A stretch of 64,000 bases of DNA from Anaerolineaceae bacterium (GTDB lineage Bacteria; Chloroflexota; Anaerolineae; Anaerolineales; Anaerolineaceae): assembly GCA_038562595.1 (NCBI GenBank), contig JBCFBH010000001.1:36093-100092 (forward strand), given 5' to 3'. How positions within the stretch are numbered: the first letter of the stretch is position 1; each line of letters opens with the position of its first letter. The translations under genes and the position numbers were made by a program. The notes beneath the pieces were generated by a model, which was given only the letters and a program-made list of their open reading frames with translations, did no database searches and was not told the origin of the DNA. Positions 1 to 52,644 of the stretch are shown here, piece by piece.

Positions 1-707
1 ACACACTGGCGGGGGTGATGGAGGCTTGGAACTGCGAAAAACCCATCTGCCTGCACGCGGAAGGGGAATCCGTGGCCGTCGGCGTCGCGCTGGCAGCCGT
101 GTACGGCAAACACATCCATTTTTGTCACGTTTCGCGCAAGGCAGAAATCGAAATGATTGCCCGCGCGAAAGAACGCAGACTGCCAGTCACCTGCGAGGTC
201 ACCCCGCACCATTTGTTCCTGACTGAAAGCGACGCTTTCCGATTGGGACCATATGGGGATATGCGCCCAACCCTGGCTGCCCCCAGCGACCAGGCGGCTC
301 TGTGGGAGCACCTAAACAGCACGATTGACTGCGTCGCCAGCGACCACGCACCGCATACCCGCGCGGAAAAAGAGCGGCCGGAAGGCAGCCCTCCCGGCGT
401 CCCGGGTTTGGAATCCACCCTGCTGCTGATGCTGACGGCGGTATCCCAGGGCAGGCTGAGCGCCGCACGCCTGGAAGAGCTTCTCGCGCGCAACCCTCGC
501 CGGATTTTTAAGCTCCCGCCGCAGCCCGATACGTGGGTAGAGGTGGACCCGGAGGCTGAGGGCGTTTTCCCGGAGCGCCCGCTGTACACCAAATGCGGTT
601 GGTCCCCTTTTGCTGGCATGCGCCTGCGCGGAAGGATTACAAGCGTCGTGCTGCGCGGACAGGAAATCGTCCGCGATGGAATTGTTTTGAATTATCAAAA
701 TCCTTAA
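1..707 (+). CDS. pyrC: dihydroorotase, C-terminal part (5' end lies outside the window)
   Basis: The frame is open to the window edge. Contains the VASDHAPH region typical of DHOase. Lies directly upstream of pyrB in a pyrimidine operon. Confidence 0.8.
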
Positions 708-14996: not shown

Positions 14997-16415
14997 ATGT
15001 TTTCTTCGTTCAAAGAAGCACACGACTACGTCCGCGCCCAGCACATCGAATTGGTCGACCTGCTCTACTGCGACCTGTGGGGGCACCTGCATCACGTCAC
15101 CCTGTCTGCCAGAGAGTTCACCGAGAACGTAATGACAGAAGGGGTCGGCTTCGACGGTTCCAGCGTGGGGTTCAAGCATGTGAACGCCGGCGATATGGTG
15201 CTGATTCCCGACCTGAGCACAGCTTTCGTGGACCCATTCCACATTCAAGCGACGCTCGCCTGCCTGTGCAGCGTTTATGAAGCGGACACCAAGGAGCTTT
15301 ACCAGTTCGACCCGCGCGAAATTGCCCGGCGCGCGGAAAAGTGGATGATTTCCACAGGCATCGCGGATAGATCTTTATGGGGTCCGGAATTTGAATTCTA
15401 CATTTTTGACCGGATTACCCTGAAAAACAGCCCTGGGTATACACTCTGTCAGATTGACTCTGGGGAAGCGAACTGGGGCACATTGGTGAATGCTAACGGC
15501 TACGCGCTGCCGGACAACCAGGCTTACCAGGCTGCCGCGCCGTGCGATAACTATTACGAACTCCGCGATGAGATTGTGGTCACGCTGGAAAAGCTCGGCA
15601 TCCCGGTCAAATATCACCATCATGAGGTTGGTGGACCGGGGCAGTCAGAAATTGAAACGCCACTGCTCGGCATCACAGAGGCAGGAGATGCGGCGCTGCT
15701 GGTCAAATACGTGGTCAAGATGACCGCCATGCGCGCTGGCAAGACCGCGACCTTCCTCCCCAAACCCATTTACGGATTGGCTGGCAGCAGCACGCATTAC
15801 CACCAGCTGCTGTCCAAGGGCGGCGCCAATCAGTTTTACGACCCCAAGGGCCTGTCTTTGCTCAGCCGGACCGCTCTTCAGTACATTGGCGGAATGCTCA
15901 CGCACGCGCCGGCCGTGATGGCGTTCACCAACCCGAGCCCCAACTCGTACCGCCGGCTGGTGCCCGGCTTCGAAGCGCCTATCAAAGCCATCTTTTCAGT
16001 CGCGAACCGCAGCGCGGCCATCCGCATCCCAAAATATGCTACCGCCCCGCAGGCGGTGCGCATGGAATTCCGCACCCCAGACGCCACTGGCAACGCTTAC
16101 CTGTCCATGGCAGCCATGCTGATGGCAGGACTGGCCGGTATCCGCGCAGAAATTGACCCAACGGAAGCTGGTTTTGGACCAATTTATGACAATATTTTTG
16201 ACTGGTCAGAGGAGCGCCGCGCCACGATCAAGTCCCTGCCTACCTCTGTGGAGTTGGCGATGAGCGCTCTGGAAAACGATCCGGGTTTTCTCAAGGAAGA
16301 TGGGATATTTGACGATACCTTAATTCAAACCTGGGTAAACACCAAACGCAAAGAGGCGGAAAGGGTCAACCAACGCCCTACCCCGTTCGAGATTGAGAAT
16401 TACTACGACTGCTAA
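14997..16415 (+). CDS. glnA: glutamine synthetase type I
   Basis: 472 aa. NPSPNSYRRLVPGFEAP and other GS-I motifs. SD AAGGAG upstream. Confidence 0.95.
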   Translation: MFSSFKEAHDYVRAQHIELVDLLYCDLWGHLHHVTLSAREFTENVMTEGVGFDGSSVGFKHVNAGDMVLIPDLSTAFVDPFHIQATLACLCSVYEADTKELYQFDPREIARRAEKWMISTGIADRSLWGPEFEFYIFDRITLKNSPGYTLCQIDSGEANWGTLVNANGYALPDNQAYQAAAPCDNYYELRDEIVVTLEKLGIPVKYHHHEVGGPGQSEIETPLLGITEAGDAALLVKYVVKMTAMRAGKTATFLPKPIYGLAGSSTHYHQLLSKGGANQFYDPKGLSLLSRTALQYIGGMLTHAPAVMAFTNPSPNSYRRLVPGFEAPIKAIFSVANRSAAIRIPKYATAPQAVRMEFRTPDATGNAYLSMAAMLMAGLAGIRAEIDPTEAGFGPIYDNIFDWSEERRATIKSLPTSVELAMSALENDPGFLKEDGIFDDTLIQTWVNTKRKEAERVNQRPTPFEIENYYDC

Positions 16416-16420
16416 ATAAA

Positions 16421-16452
16421 GCAAACGGGCGGCAAAATTGCCGCCCGTTTGC
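16421..16452. terminator. bidirectional terminator between convergent glnA and the rhodanese gene
   Basis: gcaaacgggcggc-aaaatt-gccgcccgtttgc, a 13-bp perfect stem. Confidence 0.7.
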
Positions 16453-16491: not shown

Positions 16492-16956
16492 CTAAGGTTC
16501 AGTGGGATAGCCCGCATTAACCCAAGCCTCAAAACCGCCTTTAATCGGGTTTGCCTTGGAAAATCCATTTTGCAGCATCAGGAACGCCGCACGGGCGCTC
16601 GTATTTTCAGCCGGTCAGGTACAGTAGGTGATATACCATTGGTCCGGGTCAAGAGCCGCAAGATTTGTTTCCAGGCTGTCTATGGGCAGATTGATTGCCC
16701 CTGCCGCATGCTGTGCCGTGTATTGCTCAGCGGAACGCGTGTCCACAAGGATTGCTTCGCCATTGCGCACGGCTTGATAAGCTTCCTGTACGCTCACGCG
16801 GGGTACGTCATCCTGAGATTTGATAATCGGGTTGCCGATTTGGGCGCGCGCACCCTGATAAACCAAAATTCCGACGCCCACCAGTGCCAGGGCGAGTATG
16901 AGTACCACTGGCAGGGTGCTGCTCTTTGTCTTTATTTTCCTGGAAGGTTTTTGCAT
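16492..16956 (-). CDS. membrane-anchored rhodanese-domain protein with an in-frame TGA at the catalytic-Cys position (candidate Sec codon, alternatively a pseudogene)
   Basis: The ORF-track ORF 16615..16956 ends ...WYITYCT-TGA. The same frame continues PAENTSARAAFLMLQNGFSKANPIKGGFEAWVNAGYPTEP to TAG at 16492-16494, which completes the rhodanese fold. Confidence 0.6.
16582..16600 (-). promoter_or_regulatory. SECIS-like hairpin starting 15 nt downstream of the in-frame UGA
   Basis: GAGCGCC-CGUGC-GGCGUUC (7 bp including one G-U pair, 5-nt loop with G at position 2). Confidence 0.3.
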
Positions 16957-17134
16957 TTCTCACCTCAATAGGAGGATTCTTTCATATTCAGCGCCGAAAA
17001 GAAAGTTCACGTACACGCTTTTGGCGCGCCATGAATGGAAAGCATGGGGGAAACGCGGATTTTTGCTGGCCATTTTAAAGATATTCTTAATGCTTATACC
17101 TGAGTTTCAGATTTTTCCCGAATGGGCTGCCAGC

Positions 17135-17167
17135 AATAAAAATAGAGACCGCTTTCTCGCGGTCTCT
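17135..17167 (-). terminator. rho-independent terminator of manC
   Basis: On the minus strand: agagaccgc-gagaaa-gcggtctct followed by atttttatt. Confidence 0.65.
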
Positions 17168-17184: not shown

Positions 17185-18255
17185 TTATATCAGATCCAGC
17201 CGTCCTGCGGCCTTTAATTCTTCCGCAACCTTGCGCACATCCTGCACGCGGTCTTTGCGACAAATCAGAAGCGCATCCGGGGTGTCCACGACAATCAAGT
17301 CTTCCAGGCCTATCCCGGCAATCAGCTTCTGACCCCCAAGCACGAGCGTCCCGCTGCAGTCCATCAGGAGCGAATCTCCACGGACCGTGTTCCCACGCGC
17401 GTCTACCGGCAGGAGCGATTTCAAGCTGTTCCAGTTTCCAACGTCGGTCCACTGCATGGTTACCGGCAAAACCACCACCCCGCGCGCCCCCTCCATGATG
17501 CCGTAATCAATGGTCTGCTTGCGGATTTTCGGCCAGATTTCAGCAAGCGTTTCGTCATAGGCGGGTGTATTGATCGACTTGCCAATCGCGTTAATCTGGT
17601 CATAGAGCTCCGGCATCTGGCGCGCGAACTCTTCCAGGATGACGCTGACCTTCCAGATGAACATCCCGGAGTTCCAGGCGTAATTTCCAGACCGGACCAT
17701 CTCCGCTGCCCGCTCCTGGTCCGGTTTCTCCACGAAACGACGGGCTTCCAAGACCCTGAAGCCTTCAATCTCGTCGACCAGGTCCCCCTGCTGGATATAG
17801 CCGTACTCTGTGGATGGGAATTCGGGGGAAATTCCCAAGGTGACCAATCGGTCACTTTTTGCGGCCTTAAGCGCGGCGGCCACCGCTTCGCGGAAAGCAG
17901 TTTCGTTGCCAATAAAGTGATCCGCTGTGAGTACTGCCATTACAGCTTCCGGGTCGCGCGCGGCCAGATGGACTGCAGTCAGCGCGATAGCCGAGGCGGT
18001 TCCGCGGCCTTCCGGCTCCAGGATAAAATTTTCCCTCGGGATTTCCGGCACCTGCTCCGCCAGCACGGCGGAGTGCGCAGCCCCAGCCACTACGATGACC
18101 TGCTGGGGCGTGAACAGCGGTGCAAGCCTTGCCACGGCAATCTGAAACATGCTTTTCTCGCTGTAAAGACGCAGCGCCGGCTTTGGTAAACGCTCGCGGG
18201 AGATCGGCCACAGCCGAGTGCCTGCTCCCCCAGCCATAATAACCGCGTAATTCAT
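17185..18255 (-). CDS. manC: mannose-1-phosphate guanylyltransferase
   Basis: 356 aa. N-terminal AVIMAGGAGTRLWPISR nucleotidyltransferase loop. Confidence 0.9.
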   Translation of the reverse strand: MNYAVIMAGGAGTRLWPISRERLPKPALRLYSEKSMFQIAVARLAPLFTPQQVIVVAGAAHSAVLAEQVPEIPRENFILEPEGRGTASAIALTAVHLAARDPEAVMAVLTADHFIGNETAFREAVAAALKAAKSDRLVTLGISPEFPSTEYGYIQQGDLVDEIEGFRVLEARRFVEKPDQERAAEMVRSGNYAWNSGMFIWKVSVILEEFARQMPELYDQINAIGKSINTPAYDETLAEIWPKIRKQTIDYGIMEGARGVVVLPVTMQWTDVGNWNSLKSLLPVDARGNTVRGDSLLMDCSGTLVLGGQKLIAGIGLEDLIVVDTPDALLICRKDRVQDVRKVAEELKAAGRLDLI

Positions 18256-18727
18256 TGCGCCTCCGATCTACTATATTTTTAGAAATTATAGCTTATTCAG
18301 GAAAGACATTCCCCTCCGCCGGATAGACCCCTTAGTACTCTTGCTAAAACACCTATGCGCATTATTCCAGACACGCCTGTAAGCGTTTCTCCTGGCCATC
18401 CTCCCCCTCCCGGACCAAAGCACCCCGGTACTTTAAACAGGCATCTTTTTGACGATGATGCGCTATATTGAGAACTATCTACACGCAATTTCATCAAAGA
18501 CCAAGGCGTTTCGAGTAAGTATTTTTCCGTTCCGGAACAGCCTCTGAATTGAGAAAGTCATTACTATGCGCAAATTATTACATAGACGGGGAGTTTTTTT
18601 TGTTTCCCGGCGGCAATTTCCGCCAGTTCGAGAGCTCGAGCCTGAGTTGGCACTCGAAAATAGCGTTCTATTTTTAAAAAGAAAAAAGCAAAGCTTGCCT
18701 ATGAGGGGAGAGTATTCAAGGCAGTTC

Positions 18728-20899
18728 TTAAGCCTCAGCAATGCCCAGTATATCAATGGTGCGTTGGAGCAGCTGAGCGCGCGTTCTGGTATCGGAGGAA
18801 GAAGCCAAAAGCGCTTCCAGGTCATCCGCGCCCGCGGCAGCCAACGGGCTTCTGCCGATGTAACCGGCTTGAATGCGCTGGCGCTCGCCCCAGAGGAGTT
18901 CAGCCAGCACCGGCGCATTCAGTGCCGCCAGACGTTCAGCGGACCCGCCGGCACCATTCATAGTCTCGAGTGTGCGGCTGACAGCAAAACTCAGCGGGCT
19001 GTGGATGGACTTGGTCAGACAACCGTGGATTAACCAGGTCAGGAAGTGATTGCGGGAAGGTGGAGGCAGGATGCGCTCTCTGAGCGCTGGATTCACTCTG
19101 GCAAGGAGCGCTTCCACATCCCAACCATCATCCAAAAAATAACCCACCACCCTGTTTTGTTCCTGCGACGCTGGTATTTCGCACGTTTGTGTATCTGGTT
19201 GGATGGTGTTTTTAGGGAAAATCGCAGAATCTTTGAGTCTAAAAAGTATCTTAATTATCGTATCAAATTGACAAATTTCCGCGTCAACCAATGTCTCAAA
19301 ATGACAATTAAGACTGTCCGCCAAAGTATCAAAATGACAAATTTGTTCCGCTTCTAAGGTCTCAAACTGACAAATACCCTGGGAGACTAAAGTCTCATAA
19401 TGACAAATTCGCCTGGCGTCCAGCCGCAATGCGCCGCGGAGGAGCTGGGCATAGCGCGTGTCAGAAGAAAAAGCCTGTAAAGCCAGGCGTTGTTCAGCGC
19501 TTGCTTCACTGAGCAAGAAGGCATACATGGCGCCCTTCAGAAGTTCGTCGGAGGCAGTAAGGCGAACCTCTTCCACGCGCAGCTGCCAATCCAAGCCAGC
19601 GGCGTTTGAACGGGTAGCAACCCGGCAAAGATATTGGCTGGCAAGCTGGCGGTTTGCTTCGCGCCACTCACGGGCGTATTCAGTACCAGGGTTTACTTCT
19701 TGCTTACGCGGACGACCGCGAGCGCTTTGTTTTAGGTGAGGAATGCGTCCGGGCAGCGTTTCGGAGCGGATCCACTTCTGCAGGGTTGGCAATCCGCCCG
19801 GTACCCAAAATGTGTTGCGGTCCTTTCCGCGCGCCCAGTCAATATAGCAGCAATTCTTGCTCATAAGGTAGAGCATACCCAAATCCGCGCCGAGGTCCGG
19901 TAAGACGCGGTGAAACCAGTACCACGGTACAGCCAGAAAACTTTCAGGTCGGATAAGATGCGCTGCCAACCGGTCGCATAATCCGGCCAAAGCCGGAGTG
20001 AGGCGGGAATCGCCCAGGGCTGCCTGCAAAACTTCGTGTACTGACGCGGCTGTCGAAAAAATGTCGTCCTTCGAAGGGTCCGGGGTGCGGTAGGGGAACA
20101 CAAGCATATGGTCGCGAGGTGTCTCCAGCGCCTTTTTGATGGTGCCAGCTGGGTCTGCGCTGAGACCTGCTTCAAGCAGCCAGCGGTAGAGATCCTGCGC
20201 GTCTCCAGGGGTCAGCAGGAGTCCGCGGTAGGTGTAGGTGTTTGCCTGGCGCACAATCTTACCGTTCACAAAGCGGTGGACAGGTTCCGCGCGGTGCACG
20301 AACCAATCCAATGCGCCGCTTTTGAAGACGCGGAAGAAAGTAGCGCGACTGATAACACGCCCGAGCATATTCAGAAGACCTTCCACGTCAATTGTTACCG
20401 CGTCACCCAGGCGGGGGTAGAGTTGGTCCGCGCCGTGTTCGCGGGAGCGTCGGTAAAAAGCTTGCCTGAGCGCGCTGGCAATCAGGACCGCGTTGGACCC
20501 TACAAAGGGAACAAAACGCAGCAGATAGGCGGGAATGGCGGCAATCGATTCGGGCGCGAGGATTGCCTCCGAGACATCTGAGGCGCCAAATTCAAGCGTC
20601 AGAGCACCATCTTCTGCGGCTTCAGACGCGGTAGGAAACGGTGATAGACCGGGAAGTGTGCCCATGGGCACAGTAGGGCTCATCGTCAGACGGAATTCCT
20701 TGCCGGTCAAATCCTGTACGACGGTTTCAATCAATGGATAATAACGGCAAAGACTGGCGTAGACCATTGGAGGGGCGCTGAGCTGATAGCTGCCGTTGTA
20801 GCTGACGCTGGCGGAATCAAGCAAATGGGCTAAAGCCGCGTCTTGCTTGGCGGCCAAAACCGCCTGGATATCCGACCACGCATTTACTTCAGAATTCAT
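18728..20899 (-). CDS. large protein of unknown function containing five 11-aa ICxFETL repeats (possible initiator-like DNA-binding protein)
   Basis: 723-aa uninterrupted ORF co-directional with the upstream AAA ATPase gene. No catalytic motif recognised. Repeats ICHYETLVSQG/ICQFETLEAEQ/ICHFDTLADSL/NCHFETLVDAE/ICQFDTIIKIL. Confidence 0.75.
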   Translation of the reverse strand: MNSEVNAWSDIQAVLAAKQDAALAHLLDSASVSYNGSYQLSAPPMVYASLCRYYPLIETVVQDLTGKEFRLTMSPTVPMGTLPGLSPFPTASEAAEDGALTLEFGASDVSEAILAPESIAAIPAYLLRFVPFVGSNAVLIASALRQAFYRRSREHGADQLYPRLGDAVTIDVEGLLNMLGRVISRATFFRVFKSGALDWFVHRAEPVHRFVNGKIVRQANTYTYRGLLLTPGDAQDLYRWLLEAGLSADPAGTIKKALETPRDHMLVFPYRTPDPSKDDIFSTAASVHEVLQAALGDSRLTPALAGLCDRLAAHLIRPESFLAVPWYWFHRVLPDLGADLGMLYLMSKNCCYIDWARGKDRNTFWVPGGLPTLQKWIRSETLPGRIPHLKQSARGRPRKQEVNPGTEYAREWREANRQLASQYLCRVATRSNAAGLDWQLRVEEVRLTASDELLKGAMYAFLLSEASAEQRLALQAFSSDTRYAQLLRGALRLDARRICHYETLVSQGICQFETLEAEQICHFDTLADSLNCHFETLVDAEICQFDTIIKILFRLKDSAIFPKNTIQPDTQTCEIPASQEQNRVVGYFLDDGWDVEALLARVNPALRERILPPPSRNHFLTWLIHGCLTKSIHSPLSFAVSRTLETMNGAGGSAERLAALNAPVLAELLWGERQRIQAGYIGRSPLAAAGADDLEALLASSSDTRTRAQLLQRTIDILGIAEA
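19260..19409 (+). repeat. five copies of the 18-bp motif GTMTCAWAHTGACAAWTW at exact 33-bp spacing, inside the 723-aa gene
   Basis: Copies start at 19260, 19293, 19326, 19359 and 19392. Core TGTC-N7-GACA dyad in three of the five copies; copies 1 and 3 read GTATC. Confidence 0.85.
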
Positions 20900-22925: not shown

Positions 22926-24068
22926 ATGGCAGAACTCAGGAAAAAAGGTTTTGGAGATCTGATCAACATCACAAGCGATGCTTTTGGGGCAAGCACCGGC
23001 GAAGCAGACACGGCTTTCATGGAAGGCGCGCCTAAAATGGTAAACAACCGCCAGAGCGTCTACCGCGTGCCGCTTTCCATGATCAGACCGGACCGCTTCC
23101 AGGCGCGTTTTATGCTTCCCTACGAACTACGGGAAGATTTCTATTCTCAAAAAGCGGATTGGGCTGAGACAGTGCGGCGCTGGCTAAAGCTGGCTGAGAC
23201 AGATCGCTTGATTCGCCGTGAGATTGACGAACTGATTGCGTTGGGGGATTCGCTGCACGATACCGGACAAATCAAACCAGTCACCGGTCAGGTGGTCAAT
23301 ACCGACGGCAGAGATGTGTTCCAGATGCTGACCGGCGAGCGGCGCTTTTGGGCAACCGCCATAAAGTCCGTGCGTGAGGGGCTTGGCGAGGAACCCTTTG
23401 TACTCGCGCTGATCGATAACCAACCCAGCCTTGAAAAACAAATCGCTGAGAACATGGCTTACAAGGCTCTGACGCCGGTCGGGAAAGCCCGCGCGGCTGC
23501 CCGAATCGTGTTAGAAGCCAATAACATCAAACCGGAAACTTCAGAAGATGAATTTGCTTTCTTCCGTAAAATCAATGAGGTGCGGCTGAGCGATGAGACC
23601 CGCGAAGTCCTGATGAAGACGCTTCAGTTGGAACGCACATATTACGGCCGCCTGATGAAGTTTTTTGAGCTCCCCGAGAACTTGCTTGAAATTTGCGACC
23701 GGGCGGAGATGCCCGAACGCGTGCTGCGGGAGATAGTCTCCTATGACCCCGAATATTGGACCGGCGCGGTTCACTATTACGCGGAACACGAAGGACGCAC
23801 CTACCAGGATGTGCATGCCTTCCTCGAACGGGCAGCCGGCCGGGAGAAACCCCGCGCGGTGCGCTTGCCGGCTGACCCAGCCACCAAATCGGCACGATCC
23901 ATCAAGCGCGTGCTCCTGAATATAGAGGAACTCCCGCAGGATGATAAGATTGGAACCCTCGCGGATGCTTTGATTGGCGAATCAGACAAAGAAGAAGCCG
24001 CGCGTATTGTGACCCATCTGGAACAGCTTACCGCGGCAGTCAGGCAGCGGCTTAACGGTCTGAAATAA
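22926..24068 (+). CDS. parB: ParB-family protein (divergent, with an insertion in the N-terminal domain)
   Basis: 380 aa. ParB/Srx box IRPDRFQARF ... TGERRFWATAI. C-terminal HTH-like LPENLLEICDRAEMPERVLREI. Follows parA. Confidence 0.8.
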   Translation: MAELRKKGFGDLINITSDAFGASTGEADTAFMEGAPKMVNNRQSVYRVPLSMIRPDRFQARFMLPYELREDFYSQKADWAETVRRWLKLAETDRLIRREIDELIALGDSLHDTGQIKPVTGQVVNTDGRDVFQMLTGERRFWATAIKSVREGLGEEPFVLALIDNQPSLEKQIAENMAYKALTPVGKARAAARIVLEANNIKPETSEDEFAFFRKINEVRLSDETREVLMKTLQLERTYYGRLMKFFELPENLLEICDRAEMPERVLREIVSYDPEYWTGAVHYYAEHEGRTYQDVHAFLERAAGREKPRAVRLPADPATKSARSIKRVLLNIEELPQDDKIGTLADALIGESDKEEAARIVTHLEQLTAAVRQRLNGLK

Positions 24069-24466: not shown

Positions 24467-24952
24467 TTGAATAACAAGAAAAACACAAAACTAATTATTG
24501 GAATCGCGGTCATTGCGGCAGCGCTCTTATATCTGGTTATCAGTTCAACGCTCTCACAATCACAATACTTTATGACCGTAGAAGAAATCAAGGCAGGACA
24601 AGCCGAGCTGGTCGGGAAAAATGTCCGCATGTCCGGCGTTGTCTTGGGCGATACTATTTCTTACGACCCACAAACAATGGACCTCAGCTTTGAGGTAGCC
24701 CAAATCCCTGGCGACCACCAGGTCATCCAGGACATGGGGGGCATGTCGGCTGTGCTTGCCCAGGCTGCGCACGACCCGAACCTGCCAAAAATTCAGGTCC
24801 ATTACAAAGGACCGCGTCCTGACCTTTTGAAGGACGAAGCGCAAGCTATCATGACCGGCGCTTTGGATGAGGGTGGCGTGTTTCAGGTCAGTGAACTGCT
24901 GCTGAAGTGCCCGTCCAAGTACGAAGCGGAACTACCCGCGCAAAGCAAGTAA
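24467..24952 (+). CDS. ccmE: cytochrome c maturation heme chaperone CcmE, CxxxY variant
   Basis: 161 aa. N-terminal membrane anchor and OB-fold region. C-terminal LLLKCPSKYE aligns to LAKHDENY of canonical CcmE. TTG start. Confidence 0.85.
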   Translation: MNNKKNTKLIIGIAVIAAALLYLVISSTLSQSQYFMTVEEIKAGQAELVGKNVRMSGVVLGDTISYDPQTMDLSFEVAQIPGDHQVIQDMGGMSAVLAQAAHDPNLPKIQVHYKGPRPDLLKDEAQAIMTGALDEGGVFQVSELLLKCPSKYEAELPAQSK

Positions 24953-24972
24953 TCTAAACCCTAGAGGTATAC

Positions 24973-27012
24973 ATGTTTTATGTTGGTTTTCTGACGTCCT
25001 CGCTCGCGCTGCTAACAAACGTTGTTGCGTTTATCCTGGTGATTATCCGTCTCATTCGTAAACAAACTCAACTCCCTGGCGCCGCAGTTCTTCTGACAAA
25101 AATCAGTTTCTTCGCGCACACTGCCGCCCTGCTTTCGCTAATGGTGATGCAGGTTCTGCAGGATTATTCGAATGCATATGTCATCTCGGTGATCAATCCC
25201 GCCATGCCCTGGATTCTTAAAATCACCGCGCTGTGGGGCGGTCAAACCGGCTCGCTTTTCTTCTGGAGCTGGATAGTTTCTTTGTGCGCTTTCCTGGCGC
25301 TTACCGGAAAGAAACACCTGCTCGACAACTGGTCTTTCCTGGTGGTCAGCCTTAACCAAATCCTGTTTCTTGCCCTTTCACTTGCTGCGGATAATCCTTT
25401 TACGCGCGTTTGGGCGCTGGAAGACGGCAGCCTGGTGACAAGCCTTTTCGCACCGCAGGCAGGCGCCGTGGTGGAAAGATTAACCAACGGCATGGGGCTG
25501 AACCCGCTGCTGCGCCACCCGGGGATGGTGATCCATCCACCGCTGCTGTACATCGGATATGCGCTCTACCTGGTGCCATTCGCCGTGGGAATCTCGACCC
25601 TTGCGCGCGGTTCGCAGAGCGAACATCTTCTGGATCAAACCCGGACCTGGTTATTGACTGCCTGGGTTTTCCTCGGCGCAGGGATTGTGCTCGGCAGCTG
25701 GTGGTCTTACGATGTGTTGGGGTGGGGCGGTTACTGGGCTTGGGATCCTGTGGAAACGGCCTCGCTGATGCCCTGGCTCGCAAGCACCGCTCTGCTTCAC
25801 AGCTTGCTGTTGGAACGCCGTAAGAACATTTTCCAACGCTTCAATTTGCTGCTGGTCTTGCTGAGTTACCTGCTGGTGGTTTTCAGCATCTTCGTCACCC
25901 GTTCCGGGCTGGTAAATTCGGTGCACGCTTTTGGCGAGAGCATCATCTCTATCCCGCTGCTGGTCTTCATGTTAGTCTTGCTGCTTGTATCGGTTGTACT
26001 TCTGGCGTGGCGCTGGAAGTCTCTGAACAGCGATTGGAAATTTGGTTCTGCTTTCAGCCGTGAAGCGCTGTTTCTGTACACAAATATTATCCTCATTGCG
26101 CTGGTCCTGATCTGTTTGTGGGGTCTGATTTTCCCATTGATCAATGGCGCCCTGACGGGGGTGGAAATGACGCTGCACCGCGGGTTTTACGACCGCAGCA
26201 CCACGCCGCTGTTTGCTCTGCTGGTGGTGCTGATGGCTGTTTGCCCCCTTGTGGGGTGGAACGCAGCCCGGCTGAAACAGTTCGGCAGGAAATTATGGAT
26301 CCCGTTGAGTATTGCCGCCCTGGGCTTGTTAGCGGTTTTTCTGGCTGGGGTGCGCCAGGCCTGGGCGCTTGGGGGCATTTTCATCGTCATCCTGGGTCTT
26401 ACTGCGCTCCTCTATTCGACAGCGCAGGACGCGCAAGCGGTTGGCTTGAAAAGATTTCCGAAGTTGTGGTGGAATCAGCGCGCGCGCTACGGCGCCTGGC
26501 TGGTCCATGCCGGCATTCTGTTGATTGCGCTCGGCATCGTTGGCATGGGAAACCTTTCAGCCAGCATTGAAGGAACCATGGTTCCGGGTGAAAAAATGCC
26601 TCTGCGCGGCTATGAGATCGAATTCGTGTCAGTACGGGAGAGCTTCGAGAACCCTGAGTATAAGACCGTGACTGCTGAAACCGTACTGTACAAAGATGGC
26701 AAAGAAATCGCGCGTTTGAACCCCGCCCAACACATTTATCCGGACCGCGGACAATACATTACCATACCCGACGCGCATGCTACCCTGCGGGGGGACGTGT
26801 ACACCCTGCTGGCGGGGTATGATGTTGATATCCCTTACATCACCCTGCGCCTGTCCGATAATCCTTTGGTCAACTTGATGTGGATTGGCGGTATTTTCAT
26901 AACCGCGGGCGGGGTGTTGGCTGTAAGCTTGCCCGCCAGGCGAAGCGAGCAGGAAGAGGAAACAAAAATCGCGGAGGAAACGCTTGACTCTACAAGCGCG
27001 GCAGATTTCTAA
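24973..27012 (+). CDS. ccmF: cytochrome c heme lyase subunit CcmF
   Basis: 679 aa, polytopic. WWD-type motif WGGYWAWDPVE. Confidence 0.9.
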   Translation: MFYVGFLTSSLALLTNVVAFILVIIRLIRKQTQLPGAAVLLTKISFFAHTAALLSLMVMQVLQDYSNAYVISVINPAMPWILKITALWGGQTGSLFFWSWIVSLCAFLALTGKKHLLDNWSFLVVSLNQILFLALSLAADNPFTRVWALEDGSLVTSLFAPQAGAVVERLTNGMGLNPLLRHPGMVIHPPLLYIGYALYLVPFAVGISTLARGSQSEHLLDQTRTWLLTAWVFLGAGIVLGSWWSYDVLGWGGYWAWDPVETASLMPWLASTALLHSLLLERRKNIFQRFNLLLVLLSYLLVVFSIFVTRSGLVNSVHAFGESIISIPLLVFMLVLLLVSVVLLAWRWKSLNSDWKFGSAFSREALFLYTNIILIALVLICLWGLIFPLINGALTGVEMTLHRGFYDRSTTPLFALLVVLMAVCPLVGWNAARLKQFGRKLWIPLSIAALGLLAVFLAGVRQAWALGGIFIVILGLTALLYSTAQDAQAVGLKRFPKLWWNQRARYGAWLVHAGILLIALGIVGMGNLSASIEGTMVPGEKMPLRGYEIEFVSVRESFENPEYKTVTAETVLYKDGKEIARLNPAQHIYPDRGQYITIPDAHATLRGDVYTLLAGYDVDIPYITLRLSDNPLVNLMWIGGIFITAGGVLAVSLPARRSEQEEETKIAEETLDSTSAADF

Positions 27013-27712
27013 GGCGTACGGCGCCCAACGCGTTCTGGAAAAACTTGATTTATCCGTGGACACGGGGGAGCTTGTTTGCCTCTTAGGCCCAAACGGCGCT
27101 GGGAAAACCACCTTAATTCGTACGCTCAGCGGGCTGCAAAAGCCGGATAGTGGCGTGGTGTTCTGGGGTTCCGAGAGTGAAGGCATCAGCGCCGTCAAAT
27201 TGCGTCGCAGCATCGGCCTGATCTTGCACCAGCCCTTCTTGTACGAACATCTGACGGGCTTTGAAAACCTGCGCTTCTATTCCCGCCTGTACGAAACCGG
27301 ACTGAGCGAAGCAGATTTGCGCAAAATGCTCGGACGGGTCGGGCTGGGCAGCGCCCGCCCCATACCCATCCGGGGATATTCGCGCGGCATGAAACAGCGT
27401 CTTACCATCGCGCGCGCTTTATTGTGTGACCCGCAGATTCTGCTGTTCGACGAACCATATACCGGGCTGGACCAGCAAGGCTCTGGCATGCTGAACCAGC
27501 TGCTGCTGGAGGAAAGCTCCCGGAAAAAACTGGTCCTGCTGACCACGCACGAACTCAGTTACATCCGCCAGGTCGCCACGCGTTTTGACGTGCTTCACCA
27601 CGGCAAGATCGCTGTCAGCATTCCCAACGAGGGGATAAGCCTGGACTCCTTGCAGGAACAATACACCGCGGCAATTGCGGCCGGCATAAACCCCCGCAAG
27701 GAGCAAACATGA
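26984..27712 (+). CDS. ccmA: heme exporter ATP-binding protein CcmA
   Basis: Walker A GPNGAGKTT, signature YSRGMKQR, Walker B LLLFDEP. TTG start overlapping the ccmF end. Gene context supports the call. Confidence 0.8.
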   Translation: MTLQARQISKAYGAQRVLEKLDLSVDTGELVCLLGPNGAGKTTLIRTLSGLQKPDSGVVFWGSESEGISAVKLRRSIGLILHQPFLYEHLTGFENLRFYSRLYETGLSEADLRKMLGRVGLGSARPIPIRGYSRGMKQRLTIARALLCDPQILLFDEPYTGLDQQGSGMLNQLLLEESSRKKLVLLTTHELSYIRQVATRFDVLHHGKIAVSIPNEGISLDSLQEQYTAAIAAGINPRKEQT

Positions 27713-28383
27713 AATCCTGGCTCCAATCCGTGCGCGTTTTAATCTGGAAAGATCTGCTTCAGGAATGGCGCAGCCGCGATATCCTCACTTCAATGCTCGC
27801 TTTTGCCGTGCTTTCGCTATTTATCTTCAATTACGCGTTGGAACTTTCGCCAATTAACCGCGCGGAAATTGCCCCGGGTATCATCTGGGTGGTGATGGTT
27901 TTCGCAGGTACGCTCGGTTTAAACCGCTCTTTCACCGCCGAGCAGGACCAGGGCTGCTTTGAAGGTCTGATCATGGCTGTCCCCGACCTTTCAGCGATTT
28001 ATTTTGCCAAGCTGCTCACGAACCTGCTGATGATGGTCTTTCTGGCTGTGCTTGTGATACCGATTTACTCGGTTCTTTACAACCAATCTCTGTTTAACTG
28101 GGCGTTCTTTGGCGTGTTGGTATTGGGCGCATGGGGTTACAGCGCGGCGGGTACGCTCATCGCCAGCATGACTGTGCAGACCCGCATGCGCGATTTGCTT
28201 TTGCCCGTCCTATTGTTCCCACTGCTGCTGCCTGTAAACATGGCTGTGGTAAAATCTTGCGGCGTACTGCTCGGGTCTGTCGCCGGGCAGGATATCAATG
28301 GCTGGCTCAACCTGCTGCTGGTGTACGACGTAATCGTAACGATGCTTTCGATAATGGTGTTTGAATATGTCATCCAAGAATAA
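27709..28383 (+). CDS. ccmB: heme exporter membrane protein CcmB
   Basis: 224 aa, about 6 TM. 4-nt overlap with ccmA. Confidence 0.85.
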   Translation: MKSWLQSVRVLIWKDLLQEWRSRDILTSMLAFAVLSLFIFNYALELSPINRAEIAPGIIWVVMVFAGTLGLNRSFTAEQDQGCFEGLIMAVPDLSAIYFAKLLTNLLMMVFLAVLVIPIYSVLYNQSLFNWAFFGVLVLGAWGYSAAGTLIASMTVQTRMRDLLLPVLLFPLLLPVNMAVVKSCGVLLGSVAGQDINGWLNLLLVYDVIVTMLSIMVFEYVIQE

Positions 28384-29071
28384 ACTTTTACAAATACTCT
28401 CAATTCTGGCTTTCTTACTGATGCTTTTTGCTTTTATCCGCGTTCTTTTCTTTACGCCGGTAGAGCAGACCATGGGTGTGGTGCAAAAAGTCTTTTACTT
28501 CCATATGAGCGCGGCATGGGTGGGGATGCTGGCCTTTTTGGCAGCAGCCGTGTTTGGCCTGTTATACCTCTCACGGAGAGAAATGAAATGGGACACCCTG
28601 ACCGCGGCAAGCGTGGAAGTCGGGCTGCTCTTTACGGTAATCTGCATCCTCAGCGGGATGATTTGGGCGCGCCCCATCTGGAACACCTGGTGGACCTGGG
28701 ACCCGCGCCTAACCACGGTTACCATCATGGCGTTTACCTATATTGCTTTTCTTCTGCTGCGCAGGGGGGTGGATAATCCCACCAGGCGGGCGCGTTTCAG
28801 CGCTGTGTACGCGGTCATTGGTTTTATCAGTGTTCCGCTTACATTCTTCTCCGCGCGCTTGCTGCGCACCATCCACCCGGTGGTATTCGGCAGCGGAGAG
28901 GCTGATATGAATCTCAATCCGCAAATGCTCGGGACGCTTTTCATTTCGCTGGGTGCCTTTACTGTCCTCTATGCGGCGCTTCTGCTGCACCGCGCCCGGC
29001 TGATGGCACAACAGGAAGAACTTAATCAACAACTGGCTGCGTCCAACAGCAGCTATGACTGGGGAGAATAA
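28367..29071 (+). CDS. ccmC: heme exporter protein CcmC
   Basis: WWD motif WNTWWTWDPRLT. ATG 28367 is preferred over TTG 28361. Confidence 0.85.
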   Translation: MSSKNKLLQILSILAFLLMLFAFIRVLFFTPVEQTMGVVQKVFYFHMSAAWVGMLAFLAAAVFGLLYLSRREMKWDTLTAASVEVGLLFTVICILSGMIWARPIWNTWWTWDPRLTTVTIMAFTYIAFLLLRRGVDNPTRRARFSAVYAVIGFISVPLTFFSARLLRTIHPVVFGSGEADMNLNPQMLGTLFISLGAFTVLYAALLLHRARLMAQQEELNQQLAASNSSYDWGE

Positions 29072-29074
29072 GAT

Positions 29075-29230
29075 ATGGCGCAAACTTTGAATTACTTTAT
29101 TGCCGGATATGCTGTTATCCTGGGTCTGTTAGCTGCTTACTGCCTGTATCTGCTCCTTCTCAGCCGCAAACTGAGGCGTGCGCAGAAATCCCTGGAAAAC
29201 CAAAAACAAGAGATCATCAAAGAGGGATAA
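29075..29230 (+). CDS. ccmD: small single-TM protein in the CcmD position
   Basis: Hand-translated 51 aa, MAQTLNYFIAGYAVILGLLAAYCLYLLLLSRKLRRAQKSLENQKQEIIKEG. Starts 4 nt after the ccmC stop. Below the ORF-track size cut-off. Confidence 0.5.
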   Translation: MAQTLNYFIAGYAVILGLLAAYCLYLLLLSRKLRRAQKSLENQKQEIIKEG

Positions 29231-29256
29231 AATGCCCGATTGTGTGTTTTATCACA

Positions 29257-29284
29257 TTGACAGGTAGACGTTCCGAATTATAAT
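29257..29284 (+). promoter_or_regulatory. near-consensus sigma70 promoter for the cytochrome/NOX-like operon
   Basis: TTGACA-N16-TATAAT, 50 nt upstream of the ATG at 29335. Confidence 0.55.
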
Positions 29285-29334
29285 TACCATGCTTTTTATC
29301 CAAAATCTAATAGGTATAAAGTATTGGAGAGAAT

Positions 29335-30480
29335 ATGAAGAAAAACACGTTGTTCGTTTTATTGGCGGTTGTTGCGCTTGCCCTGGTTGCCTGGGTAGGA
29401 TGCACGACCAAAGAGGCCGTTGAAGAACCCTTTGAGGAAACAACCTCTGGGATCAACGTGGTTTCTGCGAAGTGGGCAGGTTCAGCGCATGCTGATGCCG
29501 CCTCCGAAGCGTACAACCACTGGAATGAGGACGATCCCCAGGAAGTTCCCCCGACCTGCGCGAAGTGCCACAGCTCATCCGGTTTCCAGGATTATATTGG
29601 CGCTGACGGCTCCGAGGCCGGAAAGGTTGACGCGGCCGGCAAGATTATCGACCCCATCAATTGCGCGACCTGTCATAATGACGCGGCCGACAAACTGGAC
29701 GCTGCAAAACTGCCCAATGGAACTGAGCTGACCGGGCTTGACAGCGCGGCGATCTGCTCCACCTGCCACAGCGGTATGGGTTCCTCTACAGCGGTTGCTG
29801 AGAGAATTGCCGGGTTGGCTGAAGACGATGTCATCCCCGACCAGGGCATGATGGGCGTTCATTATTTTGCTGCGGCTTCCACGCAGGCAGGCGCAGACGG
29901 CGGTATGGGTTTCCAGTACGAAGGAAAAACCTATGCTGGAACCTTTAAGCACGCCGAACCTGTAAACTCCTGCACTGAATGCCACGATCCGCACTCCCTG
30001 CATACCCAGAGTGTTCCTGGCAGCGATGCCAACCTGTGCTCCACCTGCCATTCTGACGTCACGAGCTACCAGGACTACAAGAAAATCTCCATGGCCAAAG
30101 TTGATTACGATGGCGACGGCACTTCGGAAAGCACCTACGATGAAATCGAAGGCGTGCGCGCGCTTCTGATCAAAGCCCTCGCAGGTTATTCCACCGCTAA
30201 ATCCGGTGCTACTTTCGGCTTCAACCCGGCTGCTTACCCGTATGCCTTCATTGACACGAATGCAGACGGCACCCTGAGCGAGGAAGAATCCGCTTACCCG
30301 AATCAGTTCAAACTCTTCACCCCGCGTATGCTCAAAGCCGCCTACAACCTGATGTTCGTCACCAAGGACCCGGCTGCCTACATCCACAACCCGGACTACG
30401 CTCTGCAATTGATGTACGACTCCATCGAGAGCCTGTCTGAGTTCAGCGGCGTCAGCACCCAGGGTCTTGTTCGCCCCTAA
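29335..30480 (+). CDS. pentaheme c-type cytochrome lipoprotein
   Basis: Signal peptide with lipobox WVGC. Five CxxCH motifs: CAKCH, CATCH, CSTCH, CTECH, CSTCH. Confidence 0.9.
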   Translation: MKKNTLFVLLAVVALALVAWVGCTTKEAVEEPFEETTSGINVVSAKWAGSAHADAASEAYNHWNEDDPQEVPPTCAKCHSSSGFQDYIGADGSEAGKVDAAGKIIDPINCATCHNDAADKLDAAKLPNGTELTGLDSAAICSTCHSGMGSSTAVAERIAGLAEDDVIPDQGMMGVHYFAAASTQAGADGGMGFQYEGKTYAGTFKHAEPVNSCTECHDPHSLHTQSVPGSDANLCSTCHSDVTSYQDYKKISMAKVDYDGDGTSESTYDEIEGVRALLIKALAGYSTAKSGATFGFNPAAYPYAFIDTNADGTLSEEESAYPNQFKLFTPRMLKAAYNLMFVTKDPAAYIHNPDYALQLMYDSIESLSEFSGVSTQGLVRP

Positions 30481-30525
30481 GCAGGCGCGGAACAGATCAA
30501 CCTTAGAAATTGAGACGCATAAATC

Positions 30526-31818
30526 ATGACCAAGAAAACTAAGCTAATTATCTTTATGGCGCTCTTTGTTGCGCTTACGCTAACCCCGCTCGTAATAATG
30601 TTGGTCAACGCCAATTGGGCGCTGCCAATCCGGGATGTCTCCGTCGCGCTGGCATTCTTGGGGATGTCGATTGCAGGGATGCAGTTTCTCCCTATTTCCC
30701 GCATCCCCTGGCTTTCCGATGTGGTGGAACTGGACAAGATGTACAAGAACCATCATCTGATCTCTGCTTTCGCAGTCCTGTTGGTAGTCTTGCACCCCCT
30801 TGTACTGCTTGTTACCGGTAGCGTGTACTTCACCGGCTTCCTGATTACTGGTGGCTGGATTGGCTTGGCTGGCTTGGTCCTGATTGCGCTCACATCGATC
30901 TTTCGCAAGCAGCTCAAAATTAGCTATACAACCTGGCTGCTCATTCACGACCTACTTACCCTGGTAATCCTCGTCTTTGGTCTGCTGCACATGTTCCAGC
31001 GCAATTACTACATGCGGGACACGGCCATGACCATCGCCTGGATTATCCTGATGGTAATCTGGGGCGGGCTGGCGCTGTATATCCGCCTCATCCGGCCTCT
31101 CATCCTCGCCAAACATCCGTTTGCCGTGGAGAAAGTCGTCGAAGAAGGCAAAGATACGTACTCTGTCTACCTCAAAGCTGATGGTTTCAAACGTCCGGCT
31201 TTCAAGGCTGGGCAGGTGGCTTGGATTAGCAAAGGTCCGTCTCCTTTTGTCATCAGCCGCAACCCATTCTCCTACTCTGGAAGCACGGAATGGGATGCTG
31301 TGCGCTTCTCGATCAAAAAAGCCGGTGATTTCACCAATTCCATCCCCGACCTGAAACCGGGCGACCGAATGTTTGTTGATGGTCCATATGGTACCTTTGA
31401 TCTTGAGAATCCGCGCATGCAAAAAGGATTGGTCGTGATAGGCGGCGGGATTGGTATCGCGCCTGTGATGAGCATTATCAATACCCTTGCCGATACCGGT
31501 GACAAACGACCCGTCTATGTGTTCTACGGCGACCTGTGTGAAGACACGGTGCTCTTCACCAATGAATTTGAAGCGCTCAAATCCCGCATGAACCTGACGG
31601 TTGTGCAGGTGCTCGAAAAGCCCATTGATGTAGAGAAGTGCGAACACAAAGGCTATATCACCAAAGAACTACTGCTCAGCGCCCTGCCGGAAAACTATAA
31701 AGAGCTGTATTACTTTATGTGCGGCCCAATGCCCATGATGAACGCGATGAGCAAACATCTCGCGGCAATGGAAGTGGACCCGGCCCAGATTGCTATTGAA
31801 AAGTACGAGATGGCCTAA
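30526..31818 (+). CDS. NOX/ferric-reductase-like flavocytochrome b (6-TM di-heme domain plus FAD/NAD(P)H domain)
   Basis: His pairs spaced 13-14 residues apart in two TM helices (NHHLISAFAVLLVVLH; IHDLLTLVILVFGLLH). FAD motif RNPFSYS. NAD(P)H motif GGGIGIAP. C-terminal CGP. Confidence 0.85.
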   Translation: MTKKTKLIIFMALFVALTLTPLVIMLVNANWALPIRDVSVALAFLGMSIAGMQFLPISRIPWLSDVVELDKMYKNHHLISAFAVLLVVLHPLVLLVTGSVYFTGFLITGGWIGLAGLVLIALTSIFRKQLKISYTTWLLIHDLLTLVILVFGLLHMFQRNYYMRDTAMTIAWIILMVIWGGLALYIRLIRPLILAKHPFAVEKVVEEGKDTYSVYLKADGFKRPAFKAGQVAWISKGPSPFVISRNPFSYSGSTEWDAVRFSIKKAGDFTNSIPDLKPGDRMFVDGPYGTFDLENPRMQKGLVVIGGGIGIAPVMSIINTLADTGDKRPVYVFYGDLCEDTVLFTNEFEALKSRMNLTVVQVLEKPIDVEKCEHKGYITKELLLSALPENYKELYYFMCGPMPMMNAMSKHLAAMEVDPAQIAIEKYEMA

Positions 31819-51228: not shown

Positions 51229-52644
51229 TCAGTACTTTGGCGGGAAAGGAACGTTTTGTAAGTCCTCTTCCATAGGGATATCGGCTGGTTGTTCCGCGCT
51301 GCTGCCTGTGCCGATGCCTAAAAAGCCCTTGATCGCGTTCCAGATCTTTGTCCAGAAGCTGACCGGCTGCTCAGGTTCAACCGGCACCCCGCCTTCTCCC
51401 GGAATAGGCTCCTCAGGCAAAATCACAGCCGGCTGCACCTCAATCTCCAGCATTGTTTCATACACGCGCAGCTGATTGAAATCATCGGTGTAATTAATAG
51501 CCACATTAATCTTGGCTGGGCCTTCGCTGAAAGGGGTGTACATCACGTCCCAGGTGAAGTAACCGCCTGGGTCCAAGGTGCCCACGAGCCCGGTGTTGTT
51601 TTGCAGATCAGCGTTCTCGGAGCTGATGGTCATGTTGCCGAGCACAGTGGTCTTGCGGGAAAGGTTAGTAATCTGGATGGGCAGCGCGGTCATTGTGCCG
51701 TTAAAAAACATGCCCGGATCCCGGTAAAAGCTGATCTCGAGCTGGGGCAGGGCGTAAACCAGCAGGGTGATCAGTTGGTCATCAACCGCGCGTGTGCCGC
51801 CCGGTGCTGTGTAGACCAGGGAGACTTTGAGTGGATAAGCGCCGGGAACGGTGCTGACATTGACGACAAACTGCTGCTCTGTTTCCACAGACGCGCCGAC
51901 AGGCAGCTCACCCAGCAGAACCACGTTGGAGCTGCCCACAGGCGCGAAGTTGGTCAGGTCGCCGGTGGAACCGGAAATGCCGGGTTGGGGCGTGCCCTGT
52001 TCGTTGGGTGCAAGCGAAACTCCGCCGCCGTACACCAGCGACACATTGCTGGCGTCCGCCACACCGGCATTGGCGATCTTCAGCTTCAGTTTGAAAGCCG
52101 AGCCGGGCTGCAGCGGCTCTACATCCGTGTTGTAGCCGGAAATGACGAGCTGCGGTTTGGTGGCTGGACCTGGAGTAGGGGTCTTGGTCGGGCTGGCCAC
52201 GGCGGACTGGGCAATGGCGACATAAAACACAAAGGAGGTGGAGTAGCTCGTGCCGGCATCGTCTGTGTAAGTGGCTGCGGCGTTAATCACGCCGGAGTAC
52301 TTCCAGGTGCTGTAATCGCTCACGCGAAAGCGGAAGGTCGTTCCGGGACGGTCCTCAGGACCGATGCTGTTCAGGGTAAACACGCCGCCATTCAGCGGAA
52401 TGAAATCCTCGCTGCTGAAAGTCATTACAAGATTTCTGGCGACGGCATCACTTTTATTTGCCAGAACGAAGGTGAAGTCGAAAGGCGCCCAAGGCGAAAC
52501 CGCGCTGTTGGGTCCCGGAGAGTACGAATAGATATAGAGCAGCGGCTGCGAGGTCTGCGCGGCTGCCGGCTTAGCTGGCGCGCTTGCCAGCAGTAAAACC
52601 AGCAGAAATGCGGCTGCGGTAAATCGGTAAATTGCTTTTTTCAT
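51229..52644 (-). CDS. exported multi-domain beta-sandwich protein (CARDB/COG1361-like)
   Basis: Signal peptide ...APAKPAAAQ. Three internally similar modules (for example FTFVLANKSDAVARNLVMTF and FKLKLKIANAGVADASNVSLVY). Confidence 0.7.
   Translation of the reverse strand: MKKAIYRFTAAAFLLVLLLASAPAKPAAAQTSQPLLYIYSYSPGPNSAVSPWAPFDFTFVLANKSDAVARNLVMTFSSEDFIPLNGGVFTLNSIGPEDRPGTTFRFRVSDYSTWKYSGVINAAATYTDDAGTSYSTSFVFYVAIAQSAVASPTKTPTPGPATKPQLVISGYNTDVEPLQPGSAFKLKLKIANAGVADASNVSLVYGGGVSLAPNEQGTPQPGISGSTGDLTNFAPVGSSNVVLLGELPVGASVETEQQFVVNVSTVPGAYPLKVSLVYTAPGGTRAVDDQLITLLVYALPQLEISFYRDPGMFFNGTMTALPIQITNLSRKTTVLGNMTISSENADLQNNTGLVGTLDPGGYFTWDVMYTPFSEGPAKINVAINYTDDFNQLRVYETMLEIEVQPAVILPEEPIPGEGGVPVEPEQPVSFWTKIWNAIKGFLGIGTGSSAEQPADIPMEEDLQNVPFPPKY

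Follow-up and report, generated by a model that had tools for sequence, protein, structure and literature searches.

The stretch analysed here, referred to below in its full length as the window, comprises 64,000 nt of contig JBCFBH010000001.1 (positions 36,093 to 100,092 of the forward strand; assembly GCA_038562595.1) from Anaerolineaceae bacterium, and the present work deals with a minus-strand gene at 16492..16956 for a rhodanese in which an in-frame TGA, predicted to be read as selenocysteine (Sec), stands in place of the codon of the catalytic cysteine. The ATG at 16956 opens an open reading frame (ORF) of 113 codons (16956..16615), ending in ...DQWYITYCT-TGA with the TGA at 16617-16615, and a Shine-Dalgarno-like GAGGTG, read from the sequence, lies 4 nt upstream of the ATG (16961..16966, minus strand). 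Past the TGA the same frame continues for 40 further codons, PAENTSARAAFLMLQNGFSKANPIKGGFEAWVNAGYPTEP, and closes with a TAG at 16494-16492. Both parts together give 154 codons (M1 to T113, U114, P115 to P154) followed by the TAG, and they represent what appears to be a complete selenoprotein gene for a single-domain rhodanese that carries a signal anchor at its N-terminus.

The joined 154-residue protein was compared with the Pfam model PF00581 and gave 51.2 bits (cut-off 22.2), its residues 55-147 aligning to model positions 1-101 of 102, whereas the 113-residue ORF alone gave 34 bits and reached model position 68 only, short of the catalytic loop. The rhodanese domain therefore extends from end to end only when the two parts are joined across the TGA. 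An earlier sequence-only reading of the window had claimed that the annotated ORF stops ahead of the catalytic loop and that the same frame beyond the TGA supplies the rest of the domain; its coordinates and sequence were right, and the Pfam comparison confirmed both claims.

The UGA codon (16615..16617, minus strand), taken as U114, occupies the first position of the active-site loop U-PAENT-S and is followed by the base C. In the alignments it falls on the catalytic C65 of Escherichia coli GlpE (1gmx) and on the catalytic Cys of 6mxv, and the loop matches residue for residue the six-residue active-site loops C-YHGNS-S of GlpE and C-GGGFR-S of 6mxv. A loop of six residues is characteristic of rhodaneses of the sulfurtransferase type, and one of seven residues of the Cdc25 phosphatase type. 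The same position is held by Cys, encoded by TGT, in two homologues from the public protein collection, P0012 (..YSTCPNEENSARAA.., ..YSTCPNEENSARAAF..) and P0023 (..YCTCPYERTSAQAA..), which were the only full-length proteins among the close matches and are both of the Cys type. The placement of the TGA at the active-site Cys, already proposed from the letters, thus agrees with GlpE, with 6mxv and with both Cys forms.

Two residues before the Sec lies Cys112 (TGT, 16621..16623, minus strand), which completes a C-x-U motif and is a candidate resolving or partner thiol; Cys at this position was found in all 75 of the 75 Sec-form sequences. The base following the UGA (window position 16614) is C in at least 90% of the aligned sequences, and the codon preceding it (16618-16620) is ACC in 71 of 75, with an effective number of codons of 1.23. 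UGA-C is a weak termination context, and the ACC before and the C after the UGA suggest selection on the immediate context of a recoded stop.

Orthologous loci of 20 kb each were retrieved from one genome per species (GTDB representatives) by means of a pattern which ended at the Cys before the site and was consequently blind to the codon under test. Of 123 matching genomes 80 loci were kept, all from metagenome-assembled genomes (MAGs) of Anaerolineae/Chloroflexota, and the window's species is not one of the representatives, its best match there having 80% identity. The codon after ..YC-T is TGA in 80/80 loci, down to 31% protein identity, and the frame behind it measures 39-44 codons and shares the pattern P/Q-x-E-x-[ST]-S-A-R-A-A ... 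G-G ... A-W ... G-Y-P. Within 38 codons after the TGA, stops occur in none of the 80 loci in frame, versus 51/80 and 63/80 in the other two frames, and the pairwise ratio of nonsynonymous to synonymous differences (pN/pS) over these codons is 0.39 in frame versus 1.33 and 1.55 out of frame. It follows from the low in-frame ratio and from the lack of stops that the tail is translated and stands under purifying selection.

These results bear directly on the alternative, raised in the sequence-only reading itself, that a TGY-to-TGA change or a sequencing error truncates an ordinary rhodanese and that the tail is a decaying remnant. Gene callers do stop at the TGA, and damaged copies do exist: P0008 (ncbi/ena, 34.6-kb contig; 73% identity) has a scrambled C-terminus, diverging right before the Sec codon (..DPDLHYLLYLTG) in what looks like a frameshift, due to damage in this copy or to a fault of the assembly. 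However, the conservation of the TGA at the identical codon in every locus and the selection on an open downstream frame exclude a pseudogene, and assembly artefacts across some 80 independent projects are implausible. Moreover, P0001, a 99% identical protein that samples the same species independently through two other assemblies (JGI and ENA), terminates at this very codon and so speaks against a sequencing error; the synonymous-site constraint on the hairpin described below is likewise at odds with a decaying remnant. We accord this explanation next to no probability. The proposal that an alignment of orthologues be used to distinguish TGY from TGA at this codon gave a clear answer, since the orthologues carry TGA and the Cys homologues TGT.

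A single MAG contributed two of the loci, L070 and L071 (JACRBL010000035.1 and JACRBL010000042.1), each contig with a distinct copy of the Sec-rhodanese gene; these may be paralogues, or the bin may combine more than one strain.

In the public protein collection the joined query matched about 22 clusters of 52-99% identity, all ending in ...W[YI]ITYCT. The close homologues that end at the TGA are 107-171 residues long, mostly about 113, as expected if gene callers stop at that codon, and a full-length Sec entry for the Anaerolineae clade was not found in this collection. A further alternative is that the locus has two separate products, the 113-residue fragment being functional in itself, for example as a regulatory half-domain, and the 40-codon tail being translated separately or not at all. 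The truncated ORF alone is recognisable as a partial rhodanese (the 34 bits given above), and a truncated product would in any case be made whenever Sec insertion fails. Yet the fragment is without the catalytic loop, the last helix and the last strand (model positions 69-102), and the tail, which has neither a start codon nor a ribosome-binding site of its own, is nevertheless in frame with the upstream part in 80/80 loci. Two separate products are accordingly considered highly improbable.

Within codons T119-F125 (ACG AGC GCC CGU GCG GCG UUC) the message contains a hairpin, GAGCGCC-CGUGC-GGCGUUC (16582..16600, minus strand), which resembles a bacterial selenocysteine insertion sequence (bSECIS). 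Its stem has seven pairs, one of them G-U, its loop is 5 nt long with G as the second and fourth base, and a gap of 14 nt separates the stem from the UGA. According to the published bSECIS rules, the loop has 3-9 nt, the stem 4-16 bp, the distance from the UGA to the loop is 16-37 nt, the minimum free energy is at most -7.5 kcal/mol, and a G within the first two loop positions is followed by G or U (PMC13188914). The present hairpin lies within each of these limits, with a loop of 5 nt (C-G-U), a stem of 7 bp (5 conserved), a UGA-to-loop distance of 21 nt and a folding energy of -10 kcal/mol when folded alone (z-score -2.86). The hairpin, including the G at loop position 2, had been correctly described from the letters, and the spacing then thought suitable for a bacterial SECIS falls inside the published range. 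In a search of the window, Rfam matched no family, including any SECIS family; since nothing at all was matched, this is no argument against a SECIS.

The comparison of 74 distinct sequences, in which partners slid by 1-3 columns served as control, showed that the inner five pairs of the stem (16598-16594 pairing with 16588-16584, minus strand) form a conserved core, and RNAalifold recovered the same 5-bp core when no structure was supplied to it. Alignment pairs 22-32 and 23-31 are invariant. At pair 21-33, 61 sequences have C-G, 9 have U-A, 3 have U-G and one has a mismatch; at pair 24-30, 71 have C-G and 3 have U-A, none being broken. In both variable pairs the partners are synonymous third positions, those of Ser (AGC/AGU) and Ala (GCG/GCA) in the first case and of two Ala codons (GCC/GCU and GCG/GCA) in the second, so that the compensatory changes from AGC/GCG to AGU/GCA (9 sequences) and from GCC/GCG to GCU/GCA (3 sequences) leave the protein unaltered. 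Overall, 84.9% of the cells are paired, versus 27-50% with slid partners.

Synonymous codon choice is sharply restricted over this segment only. Hairpin codons +6 to +10 have an effective number of synonymous codons of 1.2-1.55, versus 3.5-3.9 for the other conserved Ala, Gly and Pro codons of the tail; Ser +6 is always AGY and the adjacent Ser +5 nearly always UCN; and Arg +8 is CGT in 63 of 67 sequences, a codon that accounts for 11% of Arg codons in the genes of the window. The pattern which the sequence-only reading had set against a selenoprotein, namely TGA-bearing orthologues with no conserved hairpin and with further disrupting mutations, is the reverse of what was observed: the core covaries and the frame is open in all the loci.

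The two Cys forms differ in what is left of the hairpin. The distant form, P0023, has no more than 3 of the 7 pairs left, and the closer one, P0012 (L081 5001-5462, Anaerolineaceae MAG), which has Ser in place of Cys at position -2 (YSTC), retains it as AGUGCC-CGCGC-GGCAUU. The retained hairpin fits a recent conversion of Sec to Cys, and P0012 thus looks like such a convert carrying a fossil SECIS.

The genes for Sec decoding were sought by ARAGORN, by Rfam, by Pfam and NCBIfam models and by tblastn, for which E. coli SelA, SelB and SelD sequences, used as leads only, were run against the window and 85 loci. Two Brevefilum MAGs contain a tRNA-Sec with anticodon TCA, in L011 at 17439-17534 and in L023 at 19000-19095 (both minus strand), found by ARAGORN and matched by Rfam RF01852 with 69.5 and 68.2 bits (gathering score 47). 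Each lies downstream of the rhodanese gene at a distance of about 9 kb, and no other tRNA was found in the orthologous loci, which amount to about 1.3 Mb; the genes adjoining the one in L023 (solute-binding protein, M50 peptidase, InhA-like, Wzz/Wzy) are unrelated to Sec. In a third relative the tblastn lead for SelD matched L006, where NCBIfam confirmed a selD gene at 18725-19849 (minus strand; TIGR00476, 334 bits, cut-off 125), 8.5-9.4 kb from the Sec-rhodanese gene. This selD has an in-frame TGA of its own at 19729-19727, at the position of Cys17 of E. coli SelD (..LSKCAG-TGA-ASKL..), and would therefore encode a Sec-containing SelD. A SelB match in L049 was rejected, as it corresponds to TypA, and selA and selB were not seen in the window or the orthologous loci. 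The contigs of SelD homologues included none from the assemblies of the closest relatives (L001-L005). We infer Sec decoding in the organism of the window from the relatives that carry the orthologue, two with tRNA-Sec and one with selD.

Two further observations concern selD. The best SelD matches in the protein collection are mostly 300-330 residues long, which suggests the same kind of N-terminal truncation by gene callers. In several contigs selD is directly followed downstream by an ORF of about 820 residues that fuses Pyr_redox_2, Rhodanese, TusA and DsrE (L086 4120-6582, L089 3174-5636), and L081 has a similar gene of 828 residues (1-715), about 4.3 kb away from its Cys-form rhodanese; this fusion may mark a neighbourhood of sulfur or selenium trafficking.

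Alternatively, near-cognate suppression or a reassignment of UGA throughout the lineage could insert one of the standard amino acids (Cys, Trp or Gly) at this codon and give a full-length protein free of selenium. The weak UGA-C context would favour ordinary read-through too, the Sec machinery was not seen in the 64-kb window, and in P0012 the fold works with Cys in this place. A reassigned code is, however, excluded by the use of TGA as an ordinary stop in 6 of the 20 Pfam-supported genes of the window, and a covarying hairpin at the canonical bSECIS distance plays no part in simple read-through. If the product were Cys, the cheaper TGY would be expected somewhere among the 80 loci and occurs in 0/80, and tRNA-Sec and the Sec-type selD are found near the orthologue in three related genomes. 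Read-through with a standard amino acid is for these reasons regarded as very unlikely, and decoding as Sec is preferred.

Several observations weigh against a selenoprotein and must be set beside the evidence given so far. The z-score of the hairpin is only -0.29 in a 43-nt and -0.58 in a 60-nt context, no better than shuffled sequences, and reliance is therefore placed on the comparative evidence. The two outermost pairs of the 7-bp stem are not conserved, being open in about half of the species. The hairpin coincides with the conserved amino-acid motif SARAA, so that part of its conservation is due to the protein; the constraint on the putative SECIS at the RNA level is separated from that at the protein level by the comparative data. 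Neither selA, selB, selC nor selD was detected in the 64-kb window by ARAGORN (which found no tRNA there), Rfam, tblastn or a Pfam scan of 30 ORFs picked by size and position. A scan of the window for pairs of ORFs joined by a single TGA revealed no other evident selenoprotein gene; of its 66 candidate pairs, all but the rhodanese look like shadows of real genes, either off-frame or antisense. Finally, the incorporation of selenium is a prediction for every member of this family, and to our knowledge no rhodanese selenoprotein has been characterised biochemically.

Taking both sides together, the gene at 16956..16492 (minus strand) is predicted, with a probability of roughly 0.93, to be a genuine selenoprotein gene, encoding one 154-residue, membrane-anchored or exported single-domain rhodanese with selenocysteine, at the UGA 16617-16615, as the putative catalytic nucleophile. 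The insertion of Sec at this UGA, the topology, the chemistry and the substrate are what we infer for the product. It most likely would catalyse a sulfurtransferase or thiol-redox reaction with Sec114 as the predicted nucleophile.

As regards the topology, a hydrophobic segment at about residues 15-33, LPVVLILALALVGVGILVY (16858..16914, minus strand), is preceded by a Lys/Arg-rich stretch and followed by ARA-Q. It has a mean Kyte-Doolittle hydropathy of 2.8, and the net charge before it is +5. A Lys/Arg-rich N-terminus with such a segment was present in all 27 homologues examined, with a mean hydropathy of 2.3-3.5 and a net positive charge before it. The segment is probably a signal anchor or a signal peptide, and by the positive-inside rule the rhodanese domain would lie outside the cytoplasm.

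A mechanism can be proposed in which the hairpin, with its loop CGUGC and its G+C-rich stem in the conserved S-A-R-A-A codons of a helix start, would bring in SelB together with its Sec-tRNA(Sec), and the UGA, aided by its weak UGA-C termination context, would be decoded as Sec and not as a stop. Where selenium or the machinery is limiting, translation would end at the UGA and yield an inactive fragment of 113 residues. In the complete protein Sec114, at the first position of the loop U-P-A-E-N-T and followed after it by Ser, would accept sulfane sulfur or, alternatively, be joined to Cys112 of the C-T-U motif as a selenenyl-sulfide, and the protein would act outside the cytoplasmic membrane as a sulfurtransferase or as a redox enzyme of the thiol type.

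Rhodanese-type sulfurtransferases had been named in the sequence-only reading as one of the families reported with Sec forms, and the literature supports this. Three rhodanese selenoprotein genes were reported in the Sargasso Sea set (PMC1088965), and a rhodanese selenoprotein "form 3" with a CxU motif (NCBIfam NF041203) is credited to Zhang & Gladyshev 2005 (Bioinformatics 21:2580) (PMC13188914) and listed also in PMC9312934. Among the NCBIfam models NF041203 (rhodanese_LYCAU, "rhodanese-related (seleno)protein", an equivalog model) was the best match of the window protein, which gave 73.1 bits on model positions 15-124 of 126; P0012 and P0023 gave 63 and 73 bits. As 73.1 bits are below the cut-off of 115, the Anaerolineae proteins are not members of the NF041203 equivalog by NCBI's rule. 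They share with it a single rhodanese domain in a protein of about 125-155 residues and a C-x-U motif with Sec at the catalytic Cys (LYCAU there, TYCTU here), but they have an invariant motif of their own, W[YI]ITYCTU, and the signal anchor.

The other rhodanese selenoproteins described are forms 1, 2 and 4, with UxxS or UxxG motifs, and form 5, TsoB, a rhodanese/DsbD fusion (PMC13188914). These likewise have Sec within the rhodanese homology domain, but their Sec-flanking motifs or architectures are different; the 572-position model of the TsoB fusion (NF045694) was matched only weakly, with 26 bits versus a cut-off of 805. The comparison with E. coli GlpE and PspE (1gmx, 2jtq), which are thiosulfate sulfurtransferases, showed the same fold and domain size and the same six-residue loop followed by Ser and a helix. 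Unlike the Anaerolineae proteins, both use Cys and have no Cys at position -2, and the similarity is low (E 4.5e-10 to GlpE). PspE is exported to the periplasm. The hairpin resembles the SECIS elements of the E. coli fdhF/fdnG type in being a stem-loop within the coding sequence, just downstream of the UGA, with a small loop bearing G-U at positions 2-3. It differs from them in that there is no sequence resemblance and only a 5-bp G+C stem is conserved, which doubles as the codons for Ser-Ala-Arg-Ala-Ala.

Judged by these sequence comparisons, the predicted Anaerolineae selenoproteins are a new subfamily of the known CxU rhodanese type. It is tempting to speculate further, at somewhat less than even odds, that they make up a distinct, class-wide Anaerolineae Sec-rhodanese subfamily (W[YI]ITYC-T-U) anchored on the outer face of the membrane, that its members would use selenium for chemistry on sulfane sulfur or thiols outside the cell, and that its SECIS was recruited from the codons of the S-A-R-A-A motif, which is universally conserved in rhodaneses. 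Such an origin would account for the repeated rise of Sec forms in this fold and for the hairpin still present in a recent Cys revertant (P0012).

The consequence for annotation would be a systematic error across a bacterial class, the predicted proteins stopping at the TGA and being left without their active site. The genomes of at least 80 species of Anaerolineae/Chloroflexota carry the TGA, and recognition of Sec would restore a complete enzyme and mark these lineages as users of selenium. The gene also offers a tidy example of a putative SECIS embedded in conserved codons, and since the protein is small and probably exported, its Cys/Sec pair clean and the hairpin simple, it would be a convenient test case for Sec in sulfurtransferase chemistry. 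The understanding of Sec decoding itself is unchanged, and this type of family has been predicted since 2005.

The surroundings of the gene contain two hairpins that may delimit its transcription. At 16414..16452 an inverted repeat was read from the sequence, its 14 bp matching perfectly around a 4-nt loop (16452-16421), with TTTATTT behind it on the minus strand; it lies 6 nt after the glnA stop, has T-rich sequence beyond it on both strands, and is absent from the list of the consensus scan. It is probably a bidirectional terminator common to the rhodanese gene and the convergent glnA. On the other side, the consensus scan gave a terminator-like hairpin at 17144..17167 (minus strand), which closes the upstream manC-like gene (17185-18255, an NTP_transferase / ManC beta-helix protein), and this implies that the rhodanese gene is a transcription unit of its own. 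The glnA and manC neighbours are common only to the five closest genomes, and the context therefore gives no clue to the function.

Elsewhere in the window, five long ORFs had no Pfam match at E <= 1e-5, namely 18728-20899 (minus), 22926-24068 (plus), 51229-52644 (minus), 61250-62404 (minus) and 15-707 (plus), of 723, 380, 471, 384 and 230 residues, respectively; those of 723 and 380 residues are kept beside the rhodanese locus in the five closest genomes. The plus-strand region 24467-31818 contains genes for cytochrome c maturation (CcmF-like, 24973-27012), a multihaem cytochrome (29335-30480; Cytochrome_C7, c3, paired CXXCH) and a ferric-reductase-like flavoprotein (30526-31818), and looks like a set of genes for extracytoplasmic electron transfer in the same genome.

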